A DNA stretch of 64,000 nucleotides from Chiloscyllium plagiosum (Eukaryota), in the NCBI RefSeq assembly GCF_004010195.1, contig NC_057749.1, positions 10,223,939-10,287,938 on the forward strand, written 5' to 3'. The notes beneath the pieces are model-generated. The model made no database searches, was not told the origin of the DNA, and saw nothing but the letters and a program-made list of their open reading frames with translations. Position 1 is the first letter of the stretch. Every line of letters starts with the position of its first letter. The position numbers were made by a program, and so were the translations under genes. Of this stretch, positions 6,111 to 63,286 are shown in pieces.

Positions 6111-6264
6111 TGATTTAATTTTTCTGTGAAAGGTGTTGGTGATGGAGTGTGTGATAAGGTCGAGGGGAGTAAATCAGGATGCAGAAAGGACCAGAACTGG
6201 AGGAAGAAACAGGGCTCCTGGAAACTTCTGATGCTAACTTTTAATCGCATTGTTTTTTTGTCAG

Positions 6265-6443
6265 ATATGTGTCAGGATCGATTGGAGAAGGCAAAATGCC
6301 TGGGGGCCACTGTTGTCTTGAAGGTCGATAAATGTACATGTCCTATGGAACTGGCCCAGAAGGTGAAGAACTCTCTATGTGCCATGCCAGACATATGCCT
6401 TGAATGCACTGGCTCTGATACCTGTACCCAGGCTGGTGTCTAT
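6265..6443 (+). CDS. SORD: Sorbitol dehydrogenase-like, internal coding exon (equivalent to human exon 7)
   Basis: Polypyrimidine-TCAG acceptor and TAT|GTAAGT donor. Encodes (D)MCQDRLEKAKCLGATVVLKVDKCTCPMELAQKVKNSLCAMPDICLECTGSDTCTQAGVY, matching the SORD pattern D....RL.KAK..GA...ECTG....QAG.Y. Earlier exons lie upstream of the window. Confidence 0.93.
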
Positions 6444-7877
6444 GTAAGTACTGGGATCCTTAACTTTTTGAAATCTGTCAACCTGTGCGATATTAGACAA
6501 AAAAGATAGCATAAAGTTAGAGATTGTGCAAGGATATTTTCTGAAATTCTCAGCCGGGTCTCTGTATGTAGTCCAGATGGCATCTCCTCATCTTGAGTAC
6601 AGCATGTTTCTTTAAATTGGTATATAGAGGAAAACAATATTTTCCAAATGCAAGGTTCCAAAATGAGACAGATAATATTTTATTGTTACAGTGAAAAATT
6701 TGGCTTTTGATTGTGAGCAATGGAATGCACTTCAGTGCACCAACTGGGTATAAATACTTCAACCAACCTGCTCAGACATGTTATGACAAATCTGAAGGGC
6801 AGGTAAGGATTTGAAACCAAATGTTCTGGCCCAGAGGTAGGGACACTATCTTTGCACCACAAGAGCCCATCAATTGGGTACATGACAGGCACAGCAGAGG
6901 TCCCAGGATCCAGCTGTGATCATTGGAACAAAAGAAATACATTGCAACTAGTGAGGCCATTTGTGCCATCATGCATGTGCTGGCTCTCTGAAGCAGCTTA
7001 TCAGTTAGTCCCATTCCCCATGGTCTTTCTCCAGAGCCTTGACAATTTCCATCTTTGCAGCTGCACACCCAACTGAAGGTTACAATTGAATCTGCTTCCA
7101 CCATTCTTTCAGGTACATTCCAGATACAACACTTCACTACAGAAAGAGAATTCTCGACTGCATTTTTTGAAATGATCTGAAATTTATGTCTTCTATTACT
7201 GACCAGCTCCCAAAGTCCTCCTAATTTTAAATGCCTCTGCTAATTTTCCCCCTTAACTGTTGATGCTTAATGAAGATCAGTCCCAGTTTCATCAGTTTCT
7301 CCATGTGACTGAACGCCTACGTACAAAGGTGTCCTGAGTGGAGTACTGTATTAACTTATAATTCCAATGACTGGTTATAAATGGGTAGATATTGAACATT
7401 TCTTTCGAAGAATGACACTTTTACTAATCAACAGACATTGATTTTTAAAGTCACTGCTGATTGGCATTGTGAAACCACAGTTCATTTCACAGAAATAAAG
7501 CTAAGACGTTCAGATGCTAGAAATCTGAAACAACAACAGAAACGAATGAAGAAACTCAGCAGGTCTTGCAGGATTTGTGGAAGAACACCGATGAGGGGTC
7601 ACTGACCCCAAAGCATTGACTCTTCTTTCTCTCCACTTCCTGTTTTTGGTTCATTTCAAGTAGATGTAATGTTTTCGGAGACCCCCAAGAGAAACTTATG
7701 AATAGCTCCTTTCCGTCTCATCAAGGTGGAAGGTGGATCAGTCAGAAGTTAACGGTTGGGACTAGAAATATATTCAGTCAATTTGGCTATGAGTCAACTG
7801 CTAAAGAGAAGCAATGTGAGACTTGAGCTCATCCTTCTACAATCTTTGAAATACAAAACCAACGTAGAGAGAGGTCA

Positions 7878-8197
7878 TTAGATTAGATTCCCTACAGTGT
7901 GGAAACAAGCCCGTCGGCCCAACAAGTCCACACCGACCCGCCGAAGTGCAATCCACCCAGACCCATTCCCCTACATTTACCCCTTCACCTAACACTATGG
8001 GCAATTTAGCATGGCCAATTCACCTGACCTGCACATCTTTGGACTGTGGGAGGAAACCAGATCACCCAGAGGAAACCTATGCAGACACGGGGAGAATGTG
8101 TAAACTCCAGACAGACAGTTGCCCGAGGTGGGAATTGAACCCAGGTCCCTGGCGCTGTGAGGCAACCGTGCTAACCACTGTGCCACCGTGCTGCCCC
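7878..8197 (-). mobile_element. HE1-type V-SINE
   Basis: Near full-length reverse copy with (TAATC)n-type tail. Confidence 0.9.
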
Positions 8198-8636
8198 ATG
8201 TGATGCAACCTTTTGCCTGCTTTATGGAAATGTGATCTGGAGAGCACACAAGCTGCTGGAATGAAGCTGATGAAGAGTCATCTAGACTCGAACCGTTAGC
8301 CTGCTCTCCATGGATGCTGCCTGACCCACTGCAATCTCCGGCATTTGTTGTTTTCTGCTGGAATGAGCAACTGTCTGTATCTCTCCTTCTCTCTTAATTT
8401 CATTTAAGTTCTGAGCCCTGTTTAGCTGTGGGAAAGTGTCGTCAACCCAGCAACAGGCAGAGACGTCCTGCTCAAAAAGACCTCTGGATTTACTACACAG
8501 TGACTGCAGGAGAGATAGGATTGTACCAGCTACGACTGGTGAGTGACTGCCCAAGTGAGAACCAAACATCCAGTAGAAATCAGTGATTATTTATTAACTT
8601 TACCTCTTTATCTGCATCTTACATGGCCAAGTTTAA

Positions 8637-10179: not shown

Positions 10180-10382
10180 AACTTAAAAATCGCACAACAC
10201 CGAGTTATAGTCCAACAGGTTTATTAGTTTTCAGAGCGCTGCTCCTTCATCGGGTGGTGGTGGATGAAGGAGCAGTGATCCGAAAACTAGTGCTTCCAAA
10301 TAACCCTGTTGCACTATAACCTGGTGTTGTGTGATTTTTAACTTTGTACACCCCAGTCCAACACTGGCATCTCCAAATCATA
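10180..10382. mobile_element. Fold-back Penelope-derived short element (family A)
   Basis: Inverted arms AAAATCGCACAACACC...CTCCTTCATC / GATGAAGGAG...GGTGTTGTGTGATTTT. Same family at 16400-16710, 41281-41490, 42400-42470 and 44520-44905. Confidence 0.75.
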
Positions 10383-16399: not shown

Positions 16400-16710
16400 C
16401 ATGATATGGAGGTGCTGGTGTTGGACTGGGGTGGACAAAGTTAAAAATTGCACAGATTATAGTCCAACAGGTTTATTTGGAAGTACTAGCTTTTGGAGAG
16501 TTGCAACCCATTCTGAAAGATGAAAGGCTTAACAGCAATCTAGGTTTGTTCAATATATTGTTTCAGTTGCATGACACTCAGAACTTTTGCGATAGATTCT
16601 GTGTCTTATGATCTTGCTTCATAGCTACCCGATGAAGGAGCAGTGCTCCGAAAGCTATTGTTTCCAATAAACCTGTTGGAGTATAATCTGGTGTTGTGTG
16701 AGTTTTAACT
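16400..16710. mobile_element. Fold-back Penelope-derived short element (family A)
   Basis: Inverted arms around a spacer; CCGATGA-A-GGAGC-AGT-GCTCC-GAAAGCTA at about 16629-16657. Confidence 0.72.
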
Positions 16711-17419
16711 CTGTCTGCTCAAGTATGACTGTTGACCAGGAGATCTGTCAGATATTTTTGTCACTGGTTTGAGCAGCTAAAAAGATATACCGGCATTCTA
16801 GGAGATGCATTCCTTGCTAAGCAGGTGAAAATCAAAGATTCTTCACCTGGATGGAAGTTAAATCCCCATGCGCAGGTAAAGGCTGGATGGAAAAGGTTAT
16901 AACTGAGCATTGGTTCAAGTTTACTTCGCAAGTGACTGGTACCAATAGTATCAGTAACAGGGATACATGTTTTATTGAGAAACTGTATGGTGAGCAGCAA
17001 CATAGCTTCCTCAAATAGAAAAGGACAGAGCAGGTGACAGGAAAAAAGTTGGTAGCTAATGACAGAAAGTCAGGGAACTGAGAAAGATGCACAGAGTGTA
17101 ATGAATCCCATGAGAATTGGCTGAAGATGGGTCACATACATCAAACCAGAGGGAAACAGCTAAAAGGCTCGGAGGTTCTTAAAGTGGTGAGGCCTGCGGT
17201 GGTTCAGGAAGGGTCAGTCGAATGAAGCAGGCTGACAGTATCAGAAAGTGTCCGGACAGAGCCAGAAGGGGTTAGGCAGCAGTGAGTCAGGCCATGGAAC
17301 CAGAAGAGAGGTCAGGAAAGGGCCATGGAACCTGATAATGGATGGCAAGCCACTGCCAGAAATCTGGCTATCTGTACCTTCAAGGTATGATTACAAAGAA
17401 AATCAATGGCACTCTCAAA

Positions 17420-18055
17420 CAGATTCCACCTCCAAACGGACCCCACCACCAGGGATATATTTCCCTCCCCTCCCCTATCAGTGTTCCGAAAAGACCACTC
17501 CCTCCGTGACTCCCTCGTCAGGTCCACACCCCCCACCAACCCAACCTCCACTCCCGGCACCTTCCCCTGCAACCGCAAGAAATGCAAAACTTGCGCCCAC
17601 ACCTCCCCCCTTACTTCCCTCCAAGGCCCCAAGGGATCCTTCCATATCCGCCACAANNNNNNNNNNNNNNNNNNNNNNNNNNNNNNNNNNNNNNNNNNNN
17701 NNNNNNNNNNNNNNNNNNNNNNNNNNNNNNNNNNNNNNNNNNNNNNNNNNNNNNNNNNNNNNNNNNNNNNNNNNNNNNNNNNNNNNNNNNNNNNNNNNNN
17801 NNNNNNNNNNNNNNNNNNNNNNNNNNNNNNNNNNNNNNNNNNNNNNNNNNNNNNNNNNNNNNNNNNNNNNNNNNNNNNNNNNNNNNNNNNNNNNNNNNNN
17901 NNNNNNNNNNNNNNNNNNNNNNNNNNNNNNNNNNNNAAGGGCTCATGCCCGAAACGTCGATTCTCCTGCTCCTTGGATGCTGCCTGACCTGCTGCGCTTT
18001 TCCATCAACACATTTTCAGCTCTGATCTCCAGCATCTGCAGTCCTCACTTTCTCC
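17420..18055 (+). mobile_element. Penelope-like element 3' part spanning an assembly gap
   Basis: Encodes FRKDHSLRDSLVRS...PCNRKKCKTC (Cys motif preceding the GIY-YIG endonuclease). A family B terminal repeat follows the gap. Confidence 0.82.
17657..17936. other. Assembly gap (280 N)
   Basis: Run of N characters. Confidence 1.
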
Positions 18056-28150: not shown

Positions 28151-29814
28151 CACTCCTGTGAATTTTAAATTAAAAGGCTTTTTAAATTGAAGATGCACTA
28201 TAAACGGAATCTGTTGTCTGCATCGATTTTCTTTATTTAATCACGTACAGACATTGGAAGAAAAAGACGAACCACTCAATTGCATCTCATTCAATTTTAT
28301 TTAATAAATAAGAAATTAAGAATAATTTAAAACCAAGATAAAAGAAAACTTGTTCATCAGTAACAAATCATTTGGTACTATATTTGTAATTAGGCAGACA
28401 CCTCCTTGCTCCCTATCTGCACTAAAAAATACATACATTCCCATGTTTAGGATTTTGCTTGACTATTTGCAAAAGAGCTGTCCGTACCCGTGTGTACAAA
28501 TCCACAACTCATAATGAGCAGTAGTACACATTTGACTCCTTAAAATGACTGCTTTCACATATTAAACACAGTCTTGTTCTTCCAGTCTTAGCTTTATCAC
28601 ACAGTAATCAGGTTACATTTCATTTGGCCAACAAATGCTTGAGTTGATTTCGCAATGAGATCAGAAAGTGACACCAGATTCTTGAGTTTTTTGTGCCATG
28701 GAGAGAAAAATAAAAAGCTGTGTGCCTTTGATTTCGAGACCAACATTTCCCGTAAGTCTACATCCTTGTGAAGCCCAGTAACAGGTATTCATCTCAAAAC
28801 TATGTTGACAAGGAGTTAAAATCATCTGCCAAATCACTGACAGCATTTGCAGATTGTTATATAAAAAGGCACAGACCATTCAGCCCTTCTGCCATTCAAT
28901 ACAATCATATTTGAACTTAGGCTTTAACATCATTTTCATGCCCAAGTCCCATATCCCTGAGAGATCAAAAAACTTGTGTATCCCAGCCTTAACTGTAGTC
29001 AGTGATAGAATATCCTCAACTCACTTGGATAGAGAATTCAAAGAATCACAAACGCCTCATCTCAGTCCTAAAACATCGATCCTTTGTCCAGTGATGGTGC
29101 CCTGCATTTCAGATTCCAGACAAACAGGAATAATCTCTCACAATCTACTTGATCAGCCCTGTCAGAAGCTGGCATGTTTCAATGGGATGTTAACAGGGTT
29201 GATCATTTAAATACAGAAAACATATCTACATGTGTAATTATCACTCAATTCCCAAATCAAAGCCAAAACAACTTGAACCATATTTGCTCTTGATTTGAAA
29301 ATTCTCACTACAAAGTAGACAAGGCTACGGGCCAAGTGCCAGAGACTGGGATTAGAATAGGTAGGTGGCTGTTTTCGTCTAGCCGTGATTCAATGGGCTG
29401 AAAGGCCTTTTTCTGTGCTGTACATCTCTATGACTGTAAAGTGTTCACTAAGATAGCTAACTCTAATCTATTAAAGTGCAGATTTCTTGTATCCTACTGC
29501 TCATTGTGGCTTTTTGCCAGATTTCACATGTTTAAACATTGGCATTTTTTAGCTTCAGAACAAAAAAGGTTAAGTCTGATTATGAATAATTTGTCCCTCT
29601 TTGAATTGTTGCAGTTAATCCAAGACTTGCTTCTCCAAATACTCCAAAAGAAGGTATAGGTACAAAACGGCTGCGCTATCAAATTATCCACATGATTGTG
29701 CTCACTTTCAATGGTACAGAGTTGGCTCAAGGCTCTACCTGCCATTTCACAAAATAATCTAATGAAAATAGTCATTTAAAAAAAATCATGTACGCAGTGG
29801 AATTTTGACATCCT

Positions 29815-29874
29815 TCAGGAGTTGCCCAGTGAAGCTGTCACACTGTTGAGTGAGCCAGGTGTTGCATGGTAATC
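29815..29874 (-). CDS. DUOXA: Probable DUOXA terminal coding exon (DYHATPGSLNSVTASLGNS*)
   Basis: Strong acceptor CTCCTCTCTGTTCATTTTACAG, phase-0 compatible with the 32592 donor. Followed by AT-rich sequence with minus-strand AATAAA at 28296-28301 and 28232-28237. No homology support. Confidence 0.5.
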   Translation of the reverse strand, partial: DYHATPGSLNSVTASLGNS

Positions 29875-30500
29875 CTGTAAAATGAACAGAGAGGAGCATT
29901 CATTCAAAAGCAATGGAATACTTCTGCCAATTGGACTGTACACACCCATCTCCTAAGCATGACAGAACACTTCACAATATTTAACTATCATAGTTTGGTT
30001 TTATTCGCTTTCCCTCGTGAGTCAGCCCAGATCATACCGAGTTATAAGATTAACTCATTGTTGCGGTCTCGTGAATGCATTTATGAGAATTCCCAAAGGA
30101 ACGTAAGAACTGGTCTGCAAAGACTGACGAGAGAAACAGACAAATGCTTAAGAGCTTGTCACTCATGGCAACAAAGGATTTATTTTTGTGAAACCTCACC
30201 TATATATAGTCACTGTAGATGTGTGGATCCAGTGCCTCTCTCTCCCTCCCCTTTTCCTTCCAGTCCCCTCTTGCTCAACAGAAAGCCCTGTCACCTCTAA
30301 TATCAGAAAGTAAGGGGCCAAGGACCTGCCCTAGGACTACACACCACACACAATCCAGCGCTGAGGGAGTGCTGCTCTGTCAGAGGCGCATCTCAAGCAG
30401 GACATTCCATGATACCATTTCTAGGAAGAGTGGTGGTGTCCTGGTCATTATTTATCCCTCAAATGACACCACCTATCTCATTATTATTTGTGAGAGATTG

Positions 30501-30678
30501 CTGAAGACATTCTTCATGCTAAGAGGAGAGGAGGATGATGATCATCAAATGAGCATTGGATTAATTAGCAATAACTTTACTGATGATCGTGGAGATGTTG
30601 TATATTTAAAGGTAAGTTTAAACTATAGCTCACAATTCTATCAATATCCTCTTTCTGTCTTATAAGTACCACATTTTG
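30501..30678 (+). repeat. Inverted copy of DUOXA exon 6 3' part, splice donor and intron start (partner 32523-32702)
   Basis: Hand alignment to the reverse complement of 32523-32702 gives 4 substitutions and one 2-nt deletion over about 180 nt. Confidence 0.97.
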
Positions 30679-32591
30679 TACTTATTGGTTGTATTAGAAC
30701 AGTAAGCAATTGATTGCTTGTAAAGTACTTTAGAATCTGCTGAAATAGTGAAAGGTGCTATACAAATGCACAGCTTTCTTTCATCTCCTCAAACCTGACT
30801 GAGGTTGCAAACTTTTATTTTCCAATATTAATACAGTAACACAGTGCCATGTTACTTTGGTAATTAATAAAATTGACTTGAGATATTGAAATAGAAATTA
30901 CCTTCTCAATTCCAGGCATCTTCAGTCTTAGGTATAAACAACAATGTCCTTGTTTTTGAAGCCATTTTTAATTTTCTAGCATTAAAAGATTTGGAAACAA
31001 TTAATAAACATCCAAAACAGCTTCAATTCATTATCTGTGACTTAACCTAAAGAGACACCCAGACTGTTTTACAATCCTATGGAGTGATATTTCACAACAC
31101 TTGCTGAAAGCCAGGAATAATGTAAGCCACTAACATTTTTCAAGTTCCCCTTAAATATAGAGAAACCCCCCAGAGTGGCTTACACAGCCATGAGACTGAA
31201 GAAGGCTTCATTTCCAAAAGTAGCAAAAAAAATTGGGCAAAGTCTTGGGTTTTCATGGATGCTTTAGAGCAGCAGTTTCCAAATGTTTTGGGCCTGTGTT
31301 AGTCCTTATTCATTTTACCAAGTTGATGCATACCCCTTAGAGACATGTTCTTTTTCAACCACATTTTGTAAATCCTACCCCGTCCAGAATCACACACTCA
31401 GCATCCCCACCCCTAGTCCTCCTGTCAGTTATTTGCCTCACCTTCTAACCCCCCCCACCCCAGTTGACTCATTCACTCAACAATCCCTCCTCCTAAACCT
31501 TCTCTTCCCTATTCACTCTGTTGTGTCTTTGAGAGACAGCTCCAGTAGCAGCCAACTTTGATCAGAGAGCCATCTCTCTCCACCTCCATACTTGGACTAT
31601 TTCTGTAATGGAGCACCATCTGATGTACAGTCATTCGCTCTCCCACTGCTTCTCCACTGTTTCACACTGAGAATGGTGCGTGTATGGAATGAGCTACCAG
31701 AGGAAGTGGTGGAGACTAGTACAAGGACAGCATTTAAAAGGCATCTGGATGGGTACATGAATAGGAAGGGTTTAGAGAGATATGTACCAAATGTTGGCAA
31801 ATAGGACGAGATTAATTTAGGATATCTGGTCAGCAGGGACAACTTAGACCTGTTTCTAAATTGTACAACTCTATGACTCAATGTCCTTGTCTGAGCATCC
31901 CCAACCTGTGGAGTAGAGAATTCCAAGGAATCCTAACTCTTTACTCCAAAGATTCATCACTACTGATGATTCCTCTTCCTTTGCTCTTTCACCTAGCCCA
32001 CAATGCTGGTCGATGTCTTCATATCAATCCTCTTCTCTTTTTGGATTTGGTGATTGGTAAACAGCTGCAGTTGAAATGCGCTTTCTGCCATCAACTCTCT
32101 GGATTTACCTGGACTGGGAATTGGTACCAATATATGGAGTCTTGCCCGCACCAGTAACTAGGTTATTTTGTAGCCAGCGAGGCCTGGTGAGAGACTTGAA
32201 CCCAGGTCTTTCAGGATCAGGGGCAGGACAATACCACCAACCCAGCCACTCCAGTACCCACTTGAGGAAATTACAAATTAGTGGGGATCTTTTTGGCATT
32301 TCCAATGCAAGGAGTTTATAAACCTCCTAAGTTGTGGGTAATATAATCCTCTGCTGTTTTTAAATCATACTGAGCAGTGATCTATTCCAGGTACCTTAGA
32401 AACTCTGTGGAACAATAATCCCTCTATAGTAACACTTCATCTATTCTGAATATCCTGACGTTAAATAGAACACACTTCACAGCATTACTTAAGGAGTCAT
32501 TAAGCAGTAGTGAGTGATTTCCCAAAATGTAGTACTTATAAGACAGAAAGAGGATATTGATAGAATTGTGAGCTATAGTTTAAAAACTTAC

Positions 32592-32764
32592 CTTTAAATA
32601 TACAGCATCTCCACGATCATCAGTAAAGTTATTGCTAATTAATCCAATGCTCATTTGATCATCATCATCCTCCTCTCCACTTAGCATGAAGAATGTCTTC
32701 AGTTTCTCTGGGATGCAGTGATCCATAATGATTACAATTACTCCAAGAATGAAGCACAGCAACG
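32592..32764 (-). CDS. DUOXA: DUOXA coding exon 6
   Basis: TCTAG acceptor. Encodes ALLCFILGVIVIIMDHCIPEKLKTFFMLSGEEDDDDQMSIGLISNNFTDDRGDAVYLK and ends at AAG|GTAAGT. If unspliced it reads on to VSF-stop at 32580. Confidence 0.9.
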
Positions 32765-34559
32765 CTAGATTAGAAAGGAAAGGGGTCTGTTATTTGTTGC
32801 ATGTTCCAAACCAGCTGTTTGTGGGAATTGGGAATTTTGATGACCCAATTTTATCAACCGCTCTATGGTGCACGCGAGGAATAAAAGCTGAAATTCGAAC
32901 TCTGAGATCTAATTCATCATGTTCCCATCCAATTCACCCATTTCCAGTATTGGCATGGGCACCCTAAATGACGTCTCCGCCTTCCTACCAGCCAATCAAT
33001 CCAGCTGGCTGATGGTCAGAGTGGAAAGTGGGCCAGGGCTTCACACTCTTAGTCTTGCCTCCTATTACTGGATTCCCTTTGTCCCTTCTGTCAATATTAA
33101 AGTTCCTGTTCAAAAGGTCCCAAGGCTCAATATACAGCAAGTTTAGAGAACCACAGTTGCCCAACTCTTGTCAATGCAATAACCCAAGTTCTCAACCTTT
33201 AGCCACTTAGTATAGAAAGTACCACGGCTCATCCGTTCCCAAAATTGATGGAAATTGATCAGCATACCACTCCTTCCTGGGAGTCAGTTTCAGATGTCAC
33301 ATAGGGACAGTAGATCAGTCTTCCTTCACAGTCAGGGAAAACATGTGTAGACAGATCTCAAGGGGCTGTCAGACAGATAAGGGCAACTTGCCTAAGCATT
33401 TTCTTTTCCTTTGCACAGCAGGTTGCTGCAATCTGGAGGGCACTGACCAAAAAGGACGGTGAAAGCAGTTTCAGTCATAACGTTCAAAAATGAGTTGGAT
33501 AAATGCTCGAAAAATGAAACGCTGGCAGGACAAAGAGTAGGGAGGGGAAACTCTGTCAAAGAGTTGATTAAGCATGAGGGGTCAGGTGGGCATGTTGTCA
33601 TTTTTCTGTGATGGGAGGTTGGAATACAAATTACCCAATAGAAGGGAATAAAATTGTCTTGGGGTGATGATACTTCCAACTGTCGTCAATCTGACTCTGC
33701 TCTTTTTGTAAATGTTGGTTGGACTTTTCAACCGTTTGGAAGAAAATTCAACATTTCATTCAATAGCCTGGCCACGTCCCAATATTTCAGCAAAATGAAA
33801 ACCAAACATATGCTGCCAAGATGAAAGAACTGAATGGGTTTTTGTGATCCAAAGCATTGAGAGTTAACCACATTGTGTGAAATTTGAAGCTAGTTTACAT
33901 CCAAACCATGAAAAGGTGGTTGATTCTGATCTTTGAAGAACATCAATGAACCTCTCAGCTTTTTGCAAGGAAAGAAAATTGGCTATGTTCATTCTTTTTT
34001 CTTTCTAGTGGTAGGTTACAAATGAATGAATTTGATAATTTTATGAATCTTCTAAGCAGGAAGCTGAGATGTCAACTTGAGGCTATGCTCAAAACAACTC
34101 TGGACACCAGTTTTAGGGAGTCAGAGTGGATGACAGATAGATTTCAACAGTTGTACTACCTGTCCTCAACCTTAAACATTTCCTGCATTTGTTCCATTAA
34201 ATATAACTATTAAATATAACTTAACTCTTAACTATACTTAGCTTAAATTTAACAATTTCCTGTATTTGGTGCACTAAGCATCAAAGCATTGCAAAAATGT
34301 TTCTATGTTCATTGATTTCTTGCTGTGCCCTCGTGTCAATCAGAAAATTAAAAGGGAAGAGCCCCAGATTTTCCACCCAGTGGTTTCAGAAGATATTGGG
34401 GACATTACTTATGGTGTTTCCTGGACTCACAACATCAACAGGGCAGCCTTCACACTAGAAAATTGACAGAAGAAAATCTATCCTGATACTAATGCAAATC
34501 TCCATTTCTTTAGATCAGTACATCTTCTGTATTCTAAAAAACAGACTCACTGTGCTTAC

Positions 34560-34774
34560 CAGTTGCTAATGTCAGCCAGAAGGAGACACTGAAATTAGTC
34601 TTCAGTGTTGTTGGGCCAAACTGAATGATGCATGGCGATACATTTTGTATAGTGGCAAATGAGATGACTCCAAAGATCATGAATGCAGATGTGACCAATG
34701 CCATGTAGCCTCCGTACACAATAGTTGGCATGGAGAAGAGAATGTTAGTGATGATCCAGGCACAAAATGCCACC
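34560..34774 (-). CDS. DUOXA: DUOXA coding exon 5
   Basis: ATTAG acceptor, G|GTAAGC donor, 215 bp. Encodes VAFCAWIITNILFSMPTIVYGGYMALVT...SFWLTLAT. Confidence 0.95.
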
Positions 34775-37251
34775 CTAATCAGAAAGATCAAAAACACAAT
34801 GCTTGGTCAAAAATCTCTAAACATTCATCCCACAAATATTACTTCTGTTTGTTCAATATGATAGGAATGTAGTCAACTAGCAATCAGCTGCACTAACATC
34901 TTGGATCTCCCTTCTGACCTTATCCATATCTCATCCTAAAACCAGTTTTTCCATTGCTCAGCTATTTCTTTTAGATGCTTTAATTGAGTGAGTTGTCCAC
35001 TCTGCACAGGTAAGTGATTTTTCACAATGACACATTGTGTGCACCAAATTTCAACATCAATGTTGAAACCCCAATACCTTGTCACACAAGTATCACAATT
35101 TCGGACAAATTAGACATGCATTTCTTTGAGTGAACTGGAATAATAACAGGCCATTTGGTTCAACATAACTGGAGGGTAGGAGGTTGAGAGGCGACTTGAT
35201 AGCAGTTTATAAAATAATGAGGGCTATAGCTAGAGTTAATGATAGTTGTCTTTTCCCTCAGATAAGGGATTTCAAGACTAGAGTGAGGGGAGAATGATTT
35301 AAAAAACACACGAGGGCAAATGTTTTACACAGAGGGTAATTCACATGCAGAATGATTTTCCTGGAGGCAGTGGTGGATGTAGACAAAATTACAACATTTA
35401 AAAGACATTTCAGTGAGTACATAAACAGGACAGGTTCAGAGGAATATGGGCTAGGAGCAGGCATGTGGGACTAGTTTAGTTTGAGATTATGTTTGGCACG
35501 GACTGGTTTGACTGAAGGGTCTGTTCCGTGCTGTATGACTCTCTAAAGTAGTTAAAGGGTAAAGCTGTATTTTCTTAAAGTTTAGATCACCATTTGGTCC
35601 ATGCTGGCAGTGTTGGTTCCAGCTTCAGAGACTATTCGATCCTTTTTTTCCCCCCTTGTACTGATTAATATGTTATATTCGACAATTTAAACAACTCTCA
35701 CTTAAGTGCTGCAATTGATTCAGCTTCATTGGCTCTTTGCATTTGTACATTCCATAGTCTAATAACCCTTTGTGTGGAGAAGACACCTTCAAACCTGTCC
35801 TTTATATTTAAGTTCATGCCCTCCATTGACCAGTGGTAATAACCAATTGCCCTTAACCTTGTTTGCTCCAATATGTTCAGCTCTAGAGTCCTGGTTGAAT
35901 TACCAATGTACAGCCCTGTTCTCATTTTTGTTCATCTTGAATGAGAGCCAAATGCCTTCATACATCCTCTATAATTATGTCCTTTCTTCTTTCTAAAAAT
36001 GATGTCACAAACTGCTCACACTGTTGTTTAGTGCCAATAAACTTTCATTCATAGCTTTGCTTCAGAGTTTAATGTTCATGTTCCCTTCCTCTAGATTTTC
36101 TTTTACACTGCTCTGTATCATCTTACAGGGCTGCGGTTGCAGCTAACAGTCTCACTGCCTGTGTAGAAATTGCAACCTCTATTTTAAATTGATGGTTTGA
36201 AAACGCTTCAGTTTGTGATATTTTTATGGTGAGTTTTGAGGTGATTCCTAGGCTGTGGCCATTGCTGGTATCTTGTGCCCATTCTCAAGTTTAATGGGTC
36301 CTGAATATTACATCTCCCTCCCCTCAATCTGGCTGTCAGTGCGTACATGTCACCTTCACATTTGACTAGCGGCAGGATAGATTTTAGACAGTCTGCTCAC
36401 TCTTACTGAATTGTGGCCAATTAAGGGGCTCCCAATGCTGTTGGTCTTTTATAAGGCAAGGTATACCCTGCAAAGTGGCTCCATGTTTAAGCTGCTGGAC
36501 AAAGCAGTCAGTGTGTCCCTCTGAGCCAAGTCGAGTCCTACTGGATATAATATAACTTTCCTTTATGTGTCGTGTGGTGCAAAAGTAGTGTTCCTACCTC
36601 TGAACCAGAATGTCCAAGTTCAAGTCCCATCTGATCCAGTGTGCAGCAACACGTCTCTACAGGATGATTAAAAATAGTTCCCCTGTGAGCCAGTCTGTGT
36701 GCCCTATTGGGAGGACGGATTTTGACTTTCACTTGGACACTGGCGCCCCACAAAGGTGCTCCTTGAAAAAAGAAATCCAGTCCTCCACTGCCCCCCCAAT
36801 AACTGAATGAATTGCCAGAACCATGCACACTGCATTGCACATTTACTAACTCTCCCTTGCTCAGCTGAGGGCACTTTGCAGCCGAGAACAGATAGCAATG
36901 TATTTTGGGATATACTGGAGAGAGGTGACGGTTTCCCTTGGCATTGGCAAATGAACACTGTCATTAACAATGTGGCCCCTTGCGTGAGCATTCACTGGTG
37001 CTAATCCACAAATTGCTCAATGTACAGATTCACTTTTACTTTTTGTTCGGGTTGAATTTGAACTCATACCTTGGTTAGGAATTTAGCCCCATTGTCAATG
37101 CAGAACTGTTCCATTTGTTTTGCTTTGCAATTGCCACTGTCCTTTGATTCTGAGTCTAAACTCTGCCTGCTTGATCTTGGATGAAATTAACCCCTTCATC
37201 TTCAAATACATCAGAAATGCAATTCAAAATGCATGAATGTGTTTTGCTTAC

Positions 37252-41280: not shown

Positions 41281-41490
41281 TTGGAGATGCCGGTGGTGGA
41301 CAAAGTTAAAAATCACACAACACCAGGTTCTAGTGCAGCAGGTTTATTCGGAAGCACTAGCTTTCGAAGCGCTGCCCCTTTTAAGTGGTTATATCCCATA
41401 ACCAGCTGATGAAGGAGCAGTGCCTCGAAAGCTAGTGCTTCCGAATAAACCTGTTGGACCATAGCCTGGTGTTGTGTGATTTATAACTTT
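41281..41490. mobile_element. Fold-back Penelope-derived short element (family A) in DUOXA intron
   Basis: About 80-bp inverted arms; CTGATGA...GAAAGCTAGTG at 41406-41437. Confidence 0.8.
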
Positions 41491-43350: not shown

Positions 43351-45311
43351 CCTTCTTTGTCTCCAAGATTTACTTAGGGAATTAATTGTTTTTTTGCGGA
43401 TGATCAGACTGGGCAGAACTCAGCTCAGCAACAAGGCAAAACCTATAACATTTGAATAGCTCTCCCTCTTTCATTCGGCTTTCTTAGCCAACCCATTCTA
43501 CACTTTAAATCTCTCTCTCTCACTCACTTGTCTTTCTTAGCCAATTTCTACACTTTAAATCTCTCTCTCTTGTCATTCTGAGTCAACTAATTTCTACACT
43601 TCAAACCTCTCTCTCTGGTCTTAGCTCATAGAGTCATAGAGATGTACAGCATGGAAATAGACGCTTCGGTCCTGACCAGATATCCCAATCCAATCTAATC
43701 CCACCTGCCAGTCACCGGCCCATACCCCTCCAAACCCTTCCTATTCATAGACCCATCCAAATGCCTCTTAAATGTTGCAATTGTACCAGCCTCCACCACT
43801 TCATCTGGCAGCTCATTCCTCCACACTTCAAACCTCTCTCTCTCTTTCTCTCTGGTCTTAGCTCATCTCCACACTTCAAATCTCTATCTCTCTCGCACAC
43901 ACATAATTCTTAGGGTGAGTCAGTTTATTTCAACGCTCCAGATCGCTGTCTCTTGTTTTTCTGAGTTAGTCAGTTCATTTCTGCTTCTCAAATCTCTCTC
44001 CAACCCTCGGAGACGGCGGCACTTTGATTTTTTTTTTGTCACGGGGAGGTGACCCACCGACGGACCTCGGGAGGTAGCATCACATTCGGAAAGACTGGCG
44101 CTCCCTCATCCAGTTGTGTACCGGCTGTTTGCTAACCTCTCATCGCATCGCATCGCTGCTCGCCCCGGCGGGTTTAACGGCATCCCAGAATCGTTACGGT
44201 GCAGGAAGAGGCCATTCGGCCCTGACGACATCCGTTCTGTCACTGTGAGAGCAGCCAATGATGTTAATGTTGGTTAGTAAAGTGCATGTTACAGACATAG
44301 TGGAATGAGAGGGACGGATAATGGTCATAACGTGAAGATGCTCATAGTCCAAACCACGATAAGCCGCCAGGGAGCGCTCTTGTGGCGGAATCCTACCCCT
44401 GCTCGATCCCTGTGTTTTAGTATCTCTTGATTAACGGGGAAAAGCTACAGTCTTCAACAGACCCGTGTTCAAACCCCGCTGCCAGCGTTTATATTTAAAT
44501 TAAACTGTCATTCTGAAATGCAAAAAGTTAAAAATCACACCACACCAGGTTATAGTCCAACAGGTTTATTTGGAAGCACTAGCTTTCGGAGTGCTGCTCC
44601 CTCATCAGGTGGTTGTGGAGAAATGTCTTATTCGCCACAGTCTGACACAGCATTGGGACAGAGGCAGACTTCACGCCTACTGTTTAAAAAGCTGAGCTAT
44701 CTTGAGAATGTAATTTAAAAGAAGTTCTGGGATTTACATCTCAAAGAACAGAAACCAGCATATCCCGTTGTAAAAGATGAAAGTTTTAATCTAAGATGGT
44801 TTACTGTATCACATCTCCATGACACTGGACTCCTCTGGCTATAAATTCTGTGAGCATGATGTTAACCTCCACAATCACCTGATAAAACGCTCTGAAAACT
44901 AGTGCGAAGGGTCTGTTGTTGCGCTGTATGACTCAACGTTTCTATATAAATGCATGGTGTCGACTAGGTTAGTTGACAGGCCCAGTCAAAGGGCACTATT
45001 CCAGGGCAATGGTTAGGAGAATGGAGGGTTGGAAAGGAGAAGGGCAAATCCTTGTCCAAACATTCGTTCGCTCTCAATCACATGGAGAAATGAGACAGTA
45101 TACCGCGGAACGAGTGGGGGCGGGACGTATAGAAATAGCTGGTACAGAATTTCAGCAGCTCTGGCAGCATCCATGGAGAGAACGCAGAGTTAATATTTTT
45201 AGTAGATCCCAGGAGGGGTTTGGGATTCAGAAATTCCTGTTGGGAATCAGTACCAGTTAAACCCAGTGCACCGTAATCCGTATAGTTTTTTCCTCCCTTT
45301 TTTAACACCCG

Positions 45312-47894: not shown

Positions 47895-48373
47895 TTGTTG
47901 TGGTTCTGTTCGCTGAGCTGTGAATTTGTGTTGCAGACGTTTCGTCCCCTATCTAGGTGACATCTTCAGTGCTTGGAAGCCTCCTGTGAAGCGCTTCTGT
48001 GATGTTTCCTCTGGCATTTATAGTGATTTGTACCTGCCGCTTCCAGTTGTCAGTTCCAGCTGTCCGCTGCAGTGGCCGGTATATTGGGTCCAGGTCGATG
48101 TGCTTATTGGCACTCATCCACATTCAGTCAACAAGACCTGGACCCAATATACCGACCACTGCAGTGGACAGCGAGAACTGACAACTGGAAGCGGCAGATA
48201 CAAATCACTATAAATGCCAGAGGAAACATCACAGAAGCGCTTCACAAGAGGCTCCCAAGCACTGAAGATGTCAGCTAGACAGGGGACGAAACGTCTGCAA
48301 CACAAATTCCCAGCTCGGCGAACAGAACCACAACAACGAGCACCCGAGCTACAAATCTTCTCCCAAACTTTGA
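47895..48373. mobile_element. Penelope-like fold-back insertion (family C), 202-bp inverted arms
   Basis: Arms 47895-48096 and 48135-48336 with a 38-nt spacer. ORF end DLDPIYRPL; hammerhead core at 48259-48298; imperfect TSD AGACTG(A/G)TTGT at 47888-47898 and 48374-48384. Confidence 0.88.
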
Positions 48374-50225: not shown

Positions 50226-50638
50226 TATGCCTATAACTATGACCAGATCAGCAGATTTCTTTCTTAAATGATGTTGGTAGGATTCCAGTTATCTTCAAAA
50301 AAAGTTGCCATCAGGTCTTTAGCATCAGCCATTTACTAAATTAAGGAATGTCGGGATAGCCCAGGAAAAAAAGTGACTTTCAAATAGACTAGCCATGATC
50401 TCTTTGAATGGTGGAGTAGGTTCAAGAGACAAAATGGCTTCCTCCTGTTGCTATTTGCAATGTACTGAATGGGAGTATAGTGTGGCTCAGAAAAGGATTG
50501 AAAACTCAAGCCATTTCGCACAGCGGCGTTCTCTGTCAGATCCTGGTAACGTTTCATTTTCACTGCAATCCCTTTAATGGGTCAGCATTTCATAACAATC
50601 TCATGTTTCCATGTTTTATTATCTAACTGCCGATAAAT

Positions 50639-50936
50639 GGGCAGCACGGTGGCACAGTGGTTAGCACTGCTGCCTCACAGCGCCTGGTTCAATTCCCGCC
50701 TCAGGCAACTGTCTGTGTGGCGTTTGCACATTCTCCCGTGTCTGCGTGGGTTTCCTCCGGGTGCTCCAGTTTCCTCCTACAGTCTAAAAATGTGCAGGTT
50801 AGGTGAGTTGGCCATGCTAAATTGCCCGTAGTGTTAAGTGAAGGGGTAAAGGTCTAGGTGGGTTGCTGTTTGGAGGGTCGGTGTGGACTTGTTGGTCCGA
50901 AGGGTCTGTTTCCACACTGTAAGTAATCTAATCTAA
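50639..50936 (+). mobile_element. HE1-type V-SINE
   Basis: tRNA-like head, V-domain and (TAATC)n tail. Confidence 0.9.
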
Positions 50937-56602: not shown

Positions 56603-56908
56603 TTAAGAAGTGTGATCGCAGTGGGATTATAGCCCGGTGCAGGCAATCAGTTGGGATGAAAGTATCTGGGATGAAACACCCTGATGTTTGTAGCCAATCC
56701 CCACTCTCTGCAGCTGAAGGTCCCTATTGTAATGGGAGTTGTTTGTTGTTTTTGGCAAAGGGCTGTTTGCTGAACCATGCACTACTGTACCTGATAATTT
56801 CTCAGGAGACAGGTTGTGCACAGGTGTAATTATTGCAGTGCATGGTTGGTCAGTCAAAGTAATCTCCTTCCGCCCCTGTGAAAAGACAATGCGTGTTTCT
56901 TTCTGCAG

Positions 56909-57073
56909 AATCACCGTTTATGCGCCGGTTGCCTGCTAGGTATGCAGATGGGGTGTACCAGGCTTTGAGTGAGCCCAAAGTACCGAATGCACGAATCCTC
57001 AGTAATATCATATCAAATGGATCATCAGGACTTTCATCCATCACGAATAGCACGGTGCTGAGTGTTTTCTTTG
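56909..57073 (+). CDS. DUOX: DUOX coding exon 3 (peroxidase-like domain)
   Basis: TTCTGCAG acceptor, G|GTAAGG donor, 165 bp. Encodes [55 protein letters not shown]. Confidence 0.96.
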
Positions 57074-57443
57074 GTAAGGATTCAGTTTATGAGGATGCAC
57101 ACAATTCCAGTGCTACAGGAACATGGGGAGAAGGTTGCCTATGACTGCTCTCTGTGCTACTTGTGCTTACAACCCAACCACCAGGCCTTCATAAGCACAG
57201 TTACTGCCCACAGTGCCCAGAGAGAAGCTTCCCCTCGTATCATCAATTCATTTTTTATAAATTTGCTCACGGAATGTGAGTATCTCTGCCCATCCCTAAT
57301 TGCCCAGAGGGGCAGTTAGGAGTCAATCACATTGCTGTGGGTCTGGAGTCACGTGTAGGCCAGACCAGGTAAGGATGGCAGATTTCCCACTCTAAAGGGC
57401 ATTATCTAACCAGATGGGATCTTCCCCCTGACAATTCACAGGG

Positions 57444-57782
57444 TACAGTGTGGAAACAGACCATCCAACCTCAACAAGTCCACACTGACTCACGGAAGAG
57501 TAACCCACTCAGACCCATGCCCCTACCCCCCATTACTCTACATTTCTCCTGAATAATGCACCTAACCTACACATGCCTGAACATTAAGGGCAATTTGGCA
57601 CGGCCAATTCACCTGACCTGCACGTCTTTGGACTGTGGGAGGAAACTGGAGCACCCGGAGGAAGCCCACACAGATACGGGGAGAATGTGCAAACTCCCAC
57701 AGACAGTTGCCCGAGACTGGAATCAATCCTGGGTCCCTGGCACTGTGAGGTAGCAGTGCTAACCACTGAGCCATCGTGCCTC
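57444..57782 (-). mobile_element. HE1-type V-SINE nested in a second SINE family copy
   Basis: Reverse copy; the flanks on both sides match 18110-18465. Confidence 0.85.
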
Positions 57783-58699
57783 CCCTGACATTGGTTTCCT
57801 GGTCATTGTTAAACCCTTAATTCCAGATTTTTTCTATTGAATTCAAATTTTAATGCATCTGCCACGGCAGGATTTGAACCCAGATGCACAGAACATTAGC
57901 TGAGTTTCTGGATTAACCATAATGCTACTAAGCTATTGCCTCCCACTTCCATCTTATCGATTTGCCAGAACCTTTAGTTTCTCTGTTGCATAATGTGAGA
58001 GGAATGGGAAGTAGAATCAAGATGGTTGTTGGATAGTTTGGAAAGTTTATGTTTTAGGAATTCCTCTTATTTAAGACATACTTGAGAAAAGGAATGTCCT
58101 GGTTTCTAAATACAGTGACATTGTAAATGTATGTCTCCATAATGGAACTGCTGGTAAAATGCAAAGTTTATCTTCATAGCTATTTTTTCTACCTGTCTAT
58201 CCATTCTTGTGATTTTTGTCAGCTTAGTTCATGCAGTTCAATTACAAAGTTCACTAGAATTATTGTAAAGTAGCTCTTTCCCCACAACAAAAAGAACTCT
58301 TGAGCCGGGGAAATTCATTTTGAAATGGAGCATGTGCACCTTGAATGTAAATCAGGCAATAAATTAACAGCGATGTGCTACAAATGATCAGAGATAGGGC
58401 CCATGCAGAGAAGAGAAACGTTTGGAACAAAGATGAATGATTTAGATCCCAGCATCATGTGCAAACTGACAAGGTGTTTGTTGATCAGTATAATAGAATT
58501 GGAAAAGTGATTGTTTTCCGCTAGTGAGCAAGTTATTCAACTGGGATAAATACCAAGGTGAATGTTACACTGCATCAAGAAATCTTGAGACTTGTCCCTA
58601 GTTTGAGAGGAGTCTCTTTAATAGATTTACTGGTTTTGTTTTGAATGAGAAATTACATGATAAAAAACCATTATATTTTGCTCTTCCAAACTTCAACAG

Positions 58700-60250: not shown

Positions 60251-60928
60251 ATCTGAACCTTGTTGTGATTACATTATTAGTTGAATTCTTATTTTACTTT
60301 GCACTACCCGTTAAGGTATTGTCCATATTTATTTATGCAGGTGTTGACCTGATTTTGTTTGTGTAGAGGTGGAAAGATTGAGAATATTACACATTCATGT
60401 TAGGTTTATAGAATATTGGTGTCTCAGTTAGTGTCCATACCTCAACAATGTTGCCAATTGGAGGCCATAAGGGACAAGCAAAGTAAATTATTATGTGCAT
60501 ACCTTGCCTTTAAAAGAGTTCACCAGTAACGACTCTACATGATGTGTGTACGCACTGTTGCGACTCTGCCTGACAGTGTGTTATGGGTTTACAAGCTGTG
60601 CACACAGAAAGGAATTGATTTGGTGTAAAGTCTGCTTCGTAACTTATAATGTGTTTTACCATTTTAATTGAACTAGCCCACAGGTCGATCAGTCCTTGAA
60701 AAGCTATTGATTATTAGACCCTCGTTGTCATAGCAATGATTGCAAACATGGCTTGTAAGCGAAAGATTAAAGAAGGAAAGCAGCAGGCTACACCAGGAGT
60801 AAGCAGATCCGTGAAGCAATGAACCAGTTGGAGAGAGAAAACTAAATCAGAAGGACTTTATAACATTTTCTTTCTCTTTGGCTTGCCCTTAATGAATCAT
60901 TTTAATCCACTCCATTGATTTCCAACAG

Positions 60929-61130
60929 GTCAATGAAGTTACCGCATGGATAGATGGAAGCTCCATTTACGGATCGTCCCATTCTTGGTGTGACGAGTTA
61001 CGGAGTTTCTCTGGTGGCCGACTTGCTTCGGGCTCGGACCCACTGCTTCCGAAACCAAGCACTGGAAAGTTGCCTATGTGGAATCACCCTGATCCAGCCA
61101 CTGGCCAGACTGGCCTTCAAGGATTTTACG
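60929..61130 (+). CDS. DUOX: DUOX coding exon 5 (peroxidase-like domain); gene continues beyond the window
   Basis: CAACAG acceptor, G|GTGAAT donor, 202 bp. Encodes [67 protein letters not shown]. Not present in the ORF track. Confidence 0.96.
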
Positions 61131-61484
61131 GTGAATATACAATATTTTGAACTTGTGACAAGTGGATAATGGCAATTAGTCATTATAATTTGTTCTAAGT
61201 ACTGCTGTGCTCAGTATCATGCCAATGTAAAGCAGATAGATGCAGTAGCATTGAATAGCTGCCAACATTGTATTGTTCAATTTCATTAAGGGCAAAATCT
61301 AGGAAACCACCACTCATGGATTAATGTTTGCTTGTGTTAGGCACGTTTTATCTATTAAATGCAATTCAACTTGCTTATCAACCTTAAAATGTTTCACATA
61401 ATTAGAGTTCTGAGTACACATAATCTATATAAATAATTAAAGTCAACTTTGTGAATTAGTTTTCTGAGGACATAACAAAAAAGA

Positions 61485-62895: not shown

Positions 62896-62957
62896 CCTCT
62901 CACAAGGTAACTAAACTGGTTAGAGTGTTACTGAGAAACCTAACATCTTAACATCGT

Positions 62958-63286
62958 GGGCGGCACGGTGGCACAGTGGTTAGCACTGCTGCCTCACAGC
63001 GCCAGAGACCCGGGTTCAATTCCCGCCTCAGGCGACTGACTGTGTGGAGTTTGCACATTCTCCCCGTGTCTGCGTGGGTTTCCTCCGGGTGCTCCGGTTT
63101 CCTCCCACAGTCCAAAGATGTGCAGGTCAGGTGAATTGGCCATGCTAAATTGCCCGTAGTGTTAGGTAAGGGGTAAATGTAGGGGTATGGGTGGGTTGCG
63201 CTTCGGCGGGTCGGTGTGGACTTGTTGGGCCGAAGGGCCTGTTTCCACACTGTAAGTAATCTAATCTAATCTAATCTAATCTAATC
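62958..63286 (+). mobile_element. Full-length young HE1-type V-SINE
   Basis: Intact A box GGTGGCACAGTGG and B box GGTTCAATTCC, CpGs retained, (TAATC)6 tail. Confidence 0.93.

Follow-up and report, generated by a model that had tools for sequence, protein, structure and literature searches.

A DUOXA gene of the shark Chiloscyllium plagiosum raises the question of what happens to a pre-mRNA when the end of one of its exons, together with the splice donor, has been reversed into a downstream intron of the same gene. DUOX, whose maturation depends on DUOXA, supplies hydrogen peroxide for thyroid hormone synthesis and mucosal defence, and long-range RNA pairing affects both splicing and editing. 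To our knowledge, almost all known long-range pairings are either short, old and conserved, or built from mobile elements, so that their origin and their immediate effect are inseparable. The DUOXA case has a plain origin in the gene's own exon end and donor, and its near-perfect partner makes it a clean natural experiment, given that related sharks with the copy exist and others without it probably do as well. The locus poses two questions: whether a 175-bp duplex with a 1.8-kb loop can win in vivo against co-transcriptional recognition of a strong donor, and whether ADAR recodes the coding arm.

The DUOXA gene and its inverted repeat

The window is the whole stretch of C. plagiosum DNA that was analyzed, 64,000 nucleotides long. 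A first-pass annotation made from the letters alone had assigned the gene on its minus strand to DUOXA, and this assignment held. The exon 1 ORF matches the Pfam profile PF10204 (dual oxidase maturation factor) at E 7.7e-8, above cutoff; the exon 5 ORF matches the solved DUOXA1 chains 6wxr_B and 7d3e_B (E 4e-15); and in tblastn every exon is 100% identical to the C. plagiosum protein P0001, named DUOXA1-like. The start codon lies at 41979 on the minus strand. Vertebrate DUOXA genes stand head-to-head with a DUOX gene, and we found plus-strand animal haem peroxidase exons (56863-57141 and 60896-61147), in the head-to-head arrangement of a DUOX-DUOXA pair. The features on which the argument depends are as follows, in the order of transcription.

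34560 to 34775, minus strand: exon 5, which the main mRNA links to exon 6 and the predicted isoforms P0003 and P0007 link to exon 8
32592 to 32764, minus strand: exon 6, 173 nt, matching P0001 residues 257-314 at 100% (tblastn) and present as a piece of the X18 transcript contig
32523 to 32702, minus strand: source arm of the repeat, running from the final 111 nt of exon 6 (32702-32592) across the donor into intron 6, of which it takes in 69 nt
30976 to 32591, minus strand: intron 6, 1616 nt, delimited by tblastn and the X18 contig, its first 69 nt belonging to the source arm
30902 to 30975, minus strand: exon 7, 74 nt, matching P0001 residues 315-329 at 100% (tblastn), with an X18 piece at 30901-30975 and splice sites read from the sequence
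29875 to 30901, minus strand: intron 7, 1027 nt, GT..AG, defined by the X18 joint 29873/30901 ("skips 1027, CT..AC (cut +1)")
30501 to 30678, plus strand: inverted copy, 178 nt, antisense to DUOXA and inside intron 7
28484 to 29874, minus strand: exon 8, terminal, its lower end approximate and inferred from the size of the X18 transcript record

Exon 6 codes for the fifth transmembrane helix and an acidic tail, and aligns to residues 257-291 of mouse and human DUOXA1. The earlier gene model lacked the 74-nt, stop-bearing exon 7, which is now placed at 30975-30902; this exon codes for the final 15 residues and contains the stop codon at 30930-30928, which lies 26 nt ahead of the last exon junction. 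Intron 7 is consequently a 3′UTR intron in the main isoform, in which exon 8 is 3′UTR. Positions 1097-1571 of the X18 record (record 17) fall on 29873-29400, and the record extends to 2487.

The inverted repeat was exactly as the first-pass annotation had described it. In BLAST and global alignment, plus-strand 30501-30678 paired in reverse complement with 32523-32702, showing four mismatches (30524 A/T, 30543 C/G, 30598 T/C and 30670 C/T) and one 2-nt indel, the TT at 32586-32585 that is missing in the copy. The content given for the source arm also stood: 111 nt of exon 6, the donor AAG/GTAAGT (its GT at 32591-32590) and about 70 nt of intron. When the window was compared with itself by BLAST, 30501-30678 aligned with 32702-32523 at 96.7% across 180 columns (E 6e-81), and the copied segment had no further match within the window. 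A repeat search of the window resolved the same pairing into two abutting inverted arm pairs, 30501-30619 with 32584-32702 (119 nt, 97%) and 30617-30678 with 32523-32584 (62 nt, 98%).

The arms are separated by a spacer of 1844 nt. The copy begins in mid-exon, without an acceptor, and sits 223 nt past the exon 7 donor and 626 nt ahead of the exon 8 acceptor. It had been assigned to the intron following exon 6; it is indeed intronic, but lies one intron further, in intron 7, so that the two arms flank exon 7 and place it in the loop. Intron 7 also holds a fragment of a dispersed, SINE-like repeat (30701-30802) at a distance of 22 nt from the copy, and an AATAAA at 30819-30814, ahead of the copy in the direction of the gene. 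A very high-copy repeat occupies about 31608-31975 in intron 6.

Reality, origin and age of the copy

Genome assemblies are known to fail by creating inverted duplicates, the copy has a SINE-like fragment close by, a second DUOXA paralogue exists in sharks (P0122 and P0126, 57% identity), and mammalian DUOXA1 and DUOXA2 lie tail to tail. The object could accordingly be an assembly error, a fragment of a mobile element, or an exon of a convergent second DUOXA gene. Contigs from two DNA runs and two organisms, however, join copy-specific bases to unique flank. The outer junction of the copy is bridged by record 1 of X1 (29415-30573) and record 9 of X13 (29415-30560), and X1 record 3 and X13 record 11 begin at 30649 and continue into the spacer. 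The misassembly for which the first-pass annotation had allowed is therefore rejected.

A mobile element or dispersed repeat was rejected as well, since the copied segment has only two places in the whole 3.56-Gb genome and its left flank is unique. A tblastn search with nine DUOXA proteins (P0001-P0009) yielded the 37-residue copy and no other plus-strand DUOXA exon in the window, which removes the second-gene candidate; a start in mid-exon without an acceptor, and the splicing of spacer exon 7 in the sense orientation, likewise speak against it. The 148-residue plus-strand ORF over the copy matched no Pfam family. We regard an artefact or other object of these kinds as very improbable. At the copy junctions we found no poly(A) tail, target duplication or clear microhomology, and the copy most likely originated by a template switch during repair or replication.

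The two organisms compared, the same species and a relative (organism B), show 167 differences in 5122 positions (3.26%). The arms differ at 4 of 178 positions (2.2%), and set against the 3.26% between the organisms, this figure is compatible with an origin close to their split or shortly ahead of it. The inverted copy is real and inherited, and arose before the two bamboo-shark lineages, now about 3.3% diverged, separated. Its earlier description as recent calls for qualification in view of an age exceeding that split. The copy retains the His codon of the exon 6 proteins in two related species, whereas exon 6 of C. plagiosum has Asp.

In organism B, a shared contig covering 30531-30678 has a depth of 22.5, about twice the 11.8-12.1 of its flanks; the arms in this organism therefore have most of their 31-mers in common and may be close to identical, although one mismatch could remain. 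An A>C change of organism B at 30593 falls within the double-depth contig. These observations, together with the retention of the copy at one site in both organisms across a divergence of 3.26%, count in favor of a maintained regulatory switch, in which selection or gene conversion would keep the pairing in order to tune full-length DUOXA, and hence DUOX maturation. The switch would either shift transcripts toward a form that lacks the fifth transmembrane helix or make the polymerase slower. The finding that inverted SINE pairs act in cis on polymerase II to reduce expression (PMC5080714) counts in the same direction. In the C. plagiosum arms, however, three of the four mismatches break pairs and the indel leaves a bulge of 2 nt, and compensatory pairs were not seen. 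Moreover, the depth argument from organism B is indirect and compatible with one mismatch, and two species are too few for conservation. Such a switch thus appears distinctly unlikely; as far as these sequences go, the arm divergence fits neutral drift, with no sign of selection for pairing.

Splicing of DUOXA and the predicted duplex

A spliced 2487-nt contig (run X18, record 17) links exons 5, 6, 7 and 8, with exon 8 starting from 29874. It spans the GT..AG intron 7 with the copy inside, which places both arms in one transcription unit. The first-pass annotation had made its proposal conditional on transcription continuing to an exon at 29874. This exon is exactly where it was predicted, and the X18 joint from exon 7 to 29874 shows that transcripts reach it rather than ending before 30678. 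Because splicing removes intron 7 after its transcription, the arms coexist solely in the pre-mRNA. Given that the stop codon lies upstream of the copy, we also considered that the copy might be part of the 3′UTR of the mature mRNA; X18 splices 30902 to 29874, which rules this out. Polyadenylation within intron 7, at the AATAAA that precedes the copy, was considered as well; the slight X18 depth in the bin 30688-30871 coincides with the dispersed repeat and is neutral on this point.

The main DUOXA mRNA is spliced normally, and the X18 contig has no differences from the genome across its exon pieces. Since contigs drop rare variants, this result bounds the size of any effect of the copy and does not exclude one. 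Among the 15 X18 joints listed (there are 98 further joints), neither an exon 5-to-8 joint nor a back-splice joint of exon 7 occurs, the second being of a kind that contigs are poor at showing.

In silico, the minimum-energy fold of a 2401-nt pre-mRNA contains 175 arm-to-arm pairs. The duplex has a predicted energy of -295.3 kcal/mol, compared with -40.2 and -31.2 for the single arms, and all nine positions of the exon 6 donor are paired within it. The fold thus reproduces the donor-masking duplex that had been proposed from the letters, and the DUOXA pre-mRNA could fold into a long duplex over the exon 6 donor. The consequences that the first-pass annotation had attached to it, namely altered splicing, ADAR editing and endo-siRNA, are hypothetical. 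Timing bears on whether it does. The donor is near-perfect relative to the consensus and is synthesized about 1.9 kb ahead of the copy, which favors early binding of U1. The copy itself follows the intron 6 acceptor by about 300 nt, and its emergence from the polymerase at this point would set up a kinetic contest between the duplex and U1 binding with commitment to splicing.

Our preferred explanation, to which we assign a probability of about one half, starts from the established inverted copying of the exon 6/intron 6 boundary into intron 7 and holds that the resulting duplex sometimes beats splicing and leads to editing and exon skipping. About 180 bp of DNA was copied to a site 1.84 kb downstream, and in the pre-mRNA the arms would zip into the 175-bp duplex, burying the strong exon 6 donor and looping out exon 7. 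Splicing would prevail in most transcripts. In a minority the duplex would form first; there it would be a good substrate for A-to-I editing across the 111 coding nucleotides that end exon 6, and would favor skipping of exons 6 and 7 to yield an exon 5-to-8 mRNA. No adaptive role is claimed, and the locus is a natural test case, not a demonstrated regulator. Complementary regions are depleted over active splice sites in human genes, according to PMC8052449, which suggests that a structure at this position would be either harmful or ineffective.

A rival explanation is a silent passenger, a neutral mutational scar whose duplex would be too rare to matter. U1 would bind the donor and exon 6 would be defined long before the copy is made, helicases and RNA packaging would separate the arms, and the exon 5-to-8 isoform would be independent of the copy. 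The normal main mRNA, the strong donor and the 1.84-kb loop all accord with this. So does the arm divergence of 2.2%, which is about that expected from drift since the 3.26% split, allowing for coding constraint on one arm, and an alternative tail read in another frame of a 3′UTR exon is typical of a noise isoform. Against it, the duplex is very long and almost perfect, at a predicted -295 kcal/mol, and far weaker human intron pairs carry editing sites and reduce inclusion of the looped-out exon (PMC8052449). Furthermore, a copy made about 300 nt past the intron 6 acceptor has time to pair before catalysis, and annotations of the short isoform are, among the proteins checked, confined to the one genus in which the copy is known. 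We consider a silent passenger quite possible without favoring it.

For the preferred explanation, an occasional win of the duplex over splicing, the exon 5-to-8 isoform is the expected splicing product. Of the 29 chondrichthyan DUOXA proteins that were compared, 2 are annotated in this form, and they come from the two Chiloscyllium species, a tally based on automatic annotations with uneven RNA support. Residues 256-285 of the predicted isoform P0003 match exon 8 at 100% (tblastn). The alternative tail comprises 28 residues (29874-29789) from the 3′UTR exon in another frame, and the mRNA is predicted to code for a DUOXA without the fifth transmembrane helix. The bolder proposal is a lineage-specific and self-made switch of splicing and editing, with arms kept near-identical by gene conversion or selection, as the contig depth in organism B hints; it would send a regulated share of DUOXA pre-mRNA into this mRNA and thereby set surface DUOX in bamboo sharks, which seems to us unlikely. 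If the RNA is unaffected, it would follow that a structure of this kind on a constitutive splice site can be borne by vertebrate cells; if the switch reading is true, the locus would document the birth of a long-range regulatory RNA structure from a gene's own exon/donor boundary.

Comparison with known systems

Judged by title or the start of the abstract, the papers retrieved included none on this DUOXA gene in sharks and no case of an inverted copy engaged in exon/intron pairing of a pre-mRNA. Among the listed matches for inverted duplication with splicing or dsRNA, most concerned plant and transposon silencing.

At the GluA2 sites, an exon pairs with an intronic editing complementary sequence that guides A-to-I editing. 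An intronic element is likewise reported to take part in site-selective A-to-I editing of Gabra-3 (PMC3479170). As in these exon-intron editing duplexes, the DUOXA exon end and donor are predicted to pair with a downstream intron, and only before splicing. Unlike them, the DUOXA partner is a recent and almost perfect duplicate of the exon itself, 178 nt long, and stands in the second intron downstream, so that another exon falls in the loop, whereas the known duplexes are short, imperfect, old and conserved; editing of DUOXA is hypothetical.

Exon circularization is promoted by flanking inverted repeats. Like inverted SINE or Alu pairs, the DUOXA arms measure a few hundred bases and lie within about 2 kb of each other in the same transcript, and as such pairs do, they could form dsRNA, draw ADAR, reduce expression and favor back-splicing of exon 7. 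The DUOXA arms differ in being no mobile elements, and one of them consists of coding sequence with a donor.

Hairpin loci such as young plant microRNA genes, Drosophila hairpin-RNA genes and maize Mu killer arise when gene fragments are duplicated in inverted orientation. Hairpin loci of this origin are treated in PMC3440606. The DUOXA copy resembles them as an inverted partial gene duplicate that would yield a long fold-back RNA homologous to the gene, but here source and copy lie in cis within one pre-mRNA, from which the copy is removed as part of an intron.

Template-switch or templated-insertion mutations create inverted repeats, and the DUOXA copy shares with them the reverse-complement copying of a nearby sequence in cis, without the hallmarks of mobile elements. 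Compared with the typical short template switch it is larger (180 bp across 1.84 kb), and its junctions have no clear microhomology.

Conserved complementary regions of human genes suppress the exons between them, block splice sites and carry an excess of A-to-I sites (PMC8052449). The DUOXA arms share the layout described there, namely two boxes in one transcription unit at kilobase spacing, one of them over a splice site and with an exon looped out. In contrast to the human regions, which are depleted over active splice sites, the DUOXA box covers a strong constitutive donor. It is far longer and, by prediction, more stable than is typical, and the pair was born by self-duplication, with its conservation known in two organisms only.

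The DUOXA gene and the inverted exon 6 segment

A minus-strand stop-to-stop ORF at 34534-34806 matches the mouse and human DUOXA1 chains 6wxr_B and 7d3e_B (E 4e-15); the next ORF, at 32580-32789, has a weak alignment to these chains over residues 257-291. The exon 6 translation retrieved P0001, a Chiloscyllium plagiosum protein named DUOXA1-like isoform X1, whose 90% cluster holds nine proteins from five orectolobiform species. P0001 maps to the minus strand with 100% identity in every exon, and the DUOXA stop codon (30930-30928) directly follows its last piece.

P0001 exon matches (tblastn, 100% identity)
41979-41833, minus strand, exon match
41216-41160, minus strand, exon match
38548-38408, minus strand, exon match
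about 37472-37251, minus strand, exon match
about 34774-34560, minus strand, exon 5
32764-32592, minus strand, exon 6
30975-30931, minus strand, exon 7, final 15 residues

Plus-strand exons with animal haem peroxidase matches (56863-57141 and 60896-61147) are those of the expected head-to-head DUOX. Downstream of DUOXA, nothing in the window hints at another gene except a weak zinc-binding dehydrogenase match at 6114-6506 (+; E 6e-4, under the Pfam cutoff). A second shark DUOXA paralogue (proteins P0122 and P0126; 57% identical) lies outside the window and shares a chromosome-scale contig with the first in Mustelus and Carcharodon.

An inverted copy of the end of exon 6, its donor and the start of intron 6 had been reported by the first-pass annotation at 30501-30678, and repeat search, self-BLAST and global alignment agree on it. 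Repeat search returned it as two adjoining pairs of arms, 30501-30619 with 32584-32702 (119 nt, 97%) and 30617-30678 with 32523-32584 (62 nt, 98%), and self-BLAST of the whole window gave a single alignment of 30501-30678 against 32702-32523 (96.7% over 180 columns, E 6e-81). This segment had no second match in the window self-BLAST, despite abundant SINE-like repeats; source arm and copy segment occupy two places only in the whole 3.56-Gb genome. By global alignment, copy and source differ at 30524 (A/T), 30543 (C/G), 30598 (T/C) and 30670 (C/T), and a TT at 32586-32585 is absent from the copy. The arms are separated by 1844 nt, and the sole N run in the window (17657-17936) is distant from them. 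The copy was also considered as an exon of a convergent paralogue; tblastn found no further plus-strand DUOXA exon in the window, and this reading was therefore rejected.

The window holds other repeats. A 442-nt palindrome or fold-back element (47895-48336), which matches its reverse complement at 91% identity, is located between the start of DUOXA and the peroxidase exons of DUOX, and its halves each match 61807-62022 at 92%. A 190-nt self-complementary element (41302-41490; 84%) in DUOXA intron 1 and related 80-100-nt pieces at 10263-10345, 16627-16714 and 44517-44618 look like a miniature inverted-repeat element family. Very high-copy repeats by contig depth (1e4 to 1e6) lie at 29400-29583, 30320-30503 and 31608-31975, one of them within the DUOXA 3′UTR exon. 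An interspersed family of ~310 nt (82-90% identity) is present in both orientations:
650-954, 7877-8201, 50638-50936, 57576-57784 and 62951-63270, among others, copies of the ~310-nt repeat

Transcript structure and position of the copy

Record 17 of run X18, a run guessed to be RNA, is a 2487-nt contig (depth 18.6) that continues past the compared stretch. It comprises 34560-34775, 32592-32764, 30901-30975 and 29400-29873, all without a single other letter. Its exact GT..AG joins reproduce the annotated protein, which shows it to be cDNA. At the 29873/30901 joint the contig jumps over 1027 nt bounded by plus-strand CT..AC, the cut possibly lying one place rightward. Sequence reading gives exon 7 as 30975-30902 (74 nt, with the donor border GAGAAG/GTAATT), intron 7 as 30901-29875 and exon 8 as beginning at 29874, preceded by TTTTACAG. 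The exon at 29874 had been placed exactly by the first-pass annotation, and transcription does continue beyond the copy to that exon, as its duplex required: the contig is spliced across intron 7. Exon 7 was absent from its gene model, and the copy is in intron 7 rather than the intron directly after exon 6, lying 223 nt past the donor of exon 7 and 626 nt ahead of the exon 8 acceptor; exon 7 is flanked by both arms.

For the main isoform, intron 7 is a 3′UTR intron. The stop lies in the 74-nt penultimate exon and the 3′UTR is interrupted by the 1027-nt intron (29875-30901). Nonsense-mediated decay usually requires 50-55 nt between stop and junction; at 26 nt upstream of the last junction, this stop is too near by that rule. 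The main mature mRNA retains just the source arm's exonic 111 nt, and an arm-to-arm duplex is possible in pre-mRNA only.

X18 is coded organism B, yet at eight listed sites (29456-29841) where X13, a DNA run of organism B, differs from the window, the X18 contig agrees with the window throughout; judged by sequence, it carries the window's allele despite that code. The X18 contig and a contig of X1, a DNA run of organism A (by code the window's species), both have an extra A after 29777 (a gene-strand T run in the 3′UTR) that the window lacks; this reflects either polymorphism or an assembly error in the homopolymer.

Age and origin of the copy

Record 1 of X1 (29415-30573) runs from unique left flank into 73 nt of the copy, including copy-specific 30524 and 30543; record 3 (30649-31698) contains the copy's last 30 nt, including copy-specific 30670, and spacer; record 2 (30544-30678), with 0 differences, connects them. 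X13 records 9 (29415-30560), 10 (30531-30678) and 11 (30649-31695) cover the junctions likewise in organism B; across seven contig pieces, 167 of 5122 aligned positions (3.26%) distinguish organism B from the window. Because the same junctions occur in so diverged an organism, the copy predates the A/B split, and the misassembly envisaged by the first-pass annotation is rejected. The contigs bridge the outer junction with 60-73 letters and the inner with 30, one below the 31-letter rule for bridging; spacer orientation is beyond the reach of short contigs, and in the spliced contig exons 6 and 8 enclose exon 7 in sense orientation. An artefact or some other object is very improbable.

The two arms of the window show 4 differences in 178 positions (2.2%), against about 4.5-5 estimated from drift since the split once the 111 coding-constrained nt of one arm are taken into account. 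This fits an origin near the split, and the arm divergence gives no sign of selection for pairing; that the copy is a maintained regulatory switch is unlikely. The copy retains a His codon at 30542-30544 where C. plagiosum exon 6 has Asp; since exon 6 of the C. punctatum and Hemiscyllium proteins also has His, the change at this site was in the source, not in the copy. The organism B contig 30531-30678 has a depth of 22.5 versus 11.8-12.1 in its flanks, indirectly suggesting, with the arms read together, that they have most 31-mers in common and may be almost identical.

The copy's left flank is unique in the genome, and its right flank contains a dispersed SINE-like fragment (30701-30802) found in at least 12 other places. 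No poly(A) tail, terminal repeat or target duplication marks the copy. We infer a DNA-level template switch or a templated repair insertion as its most economical origin. We assign a probability of about 0.9 to the joint claim that the repeat is real, inherited, non-mobile, intronic, in cis and confined to pre-mRNA; functional readings are much less certain.

Predicted duplex formation and its possible consequences

With RNA parameters, the arm-to-arm duplex has an energy of -295.3 kcal/mol versus -40.2 and -31.2 for the single arms. Folding had been suggested by the first-pass annotation, and the minimum-energy fold of the 2401-nt pre-mRNA (32800 to 30400) contains 175 arm-to-arm pairs that wholly enclose the donor AAG/GUAAGU, paired at every position. 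Of the four substitutions, three give U-U, G-G and C-A mismatches and one still pairs as G-U. Transcription proceeds from the exon 6 donor through the 1.6-kb intron 6, exon 7 and 223 nt to the copy, which would emerge about 300 nt past the intron 6 acceptor, at a time when U1 has long been able to bind the donor but catalysis has probably yet to occur, so that duplex formation would be in kinetic competition with splicing.

In the dominant X18 contig splicing is normal and exon 6 has no sequence differences, as would be the case for a silent passenger; minor forms are invisible in contigs. In two predicted isoforms, P0003 of C. plagiosum and P0007 of C. punctatum, exon 5 is followed straight by exon 8; exon 7 is missing, as is exon 6, the exon encoding the fifth transmembrane helix, and both isoforms end in 28 residues of exon 8 in another frame (29874-29789, 100% by tblastn). 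Among 29 chondrichthyan orthologue proteins with C-termini read, annotated to uneven depth across species, just these two Chiloscyllium short forms have this structure; P0138, from Callorhinchus, ends in an unusual tail of another kind. The Chiloscyllium-only form may thus lend indirect support to a minor effect of the duplex. We consider the chances about even that the duplex has a measurable molecular consequence, with the exon 6 end edited and/or exons 6-7 skipped in a minority of transcripts; a silent passenger is a possible, somewhat less favored reading.

If the exon 6 donor is unused, read-through adds three residues before a TAA (32582-32580), so intron 6 retention would yield a protein without just the last 15 residues.

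Our literature search found no paper on the DUOXA locus or an exon-plus-donor self-copy of this kind, although a word search cannot prove absence. Long-range intramolecular complementarity in pre-mRNA is a known phenomenon; here its origin is unusually transparent, making the DUOXA inverted copy a natural test case of moderate interest. Inverted SINE pairs lower expression in cis (PMC5080714). PMC8052449 describes human conserved complementary regions that suppress the exons between them, obstruct inactive and cryptic splice sites and are enriched about twofold in A-to-I sites; by analogy, some editing or skipping would be expected from the DUOXA duplex. The same paper describes depletion of these regions over active splice sites, which warns that effective structures there are normally not tolerated. 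Compared with the human regions so described, the 175-bp DUOXA duplex is unusual in covering a constitutive donor.
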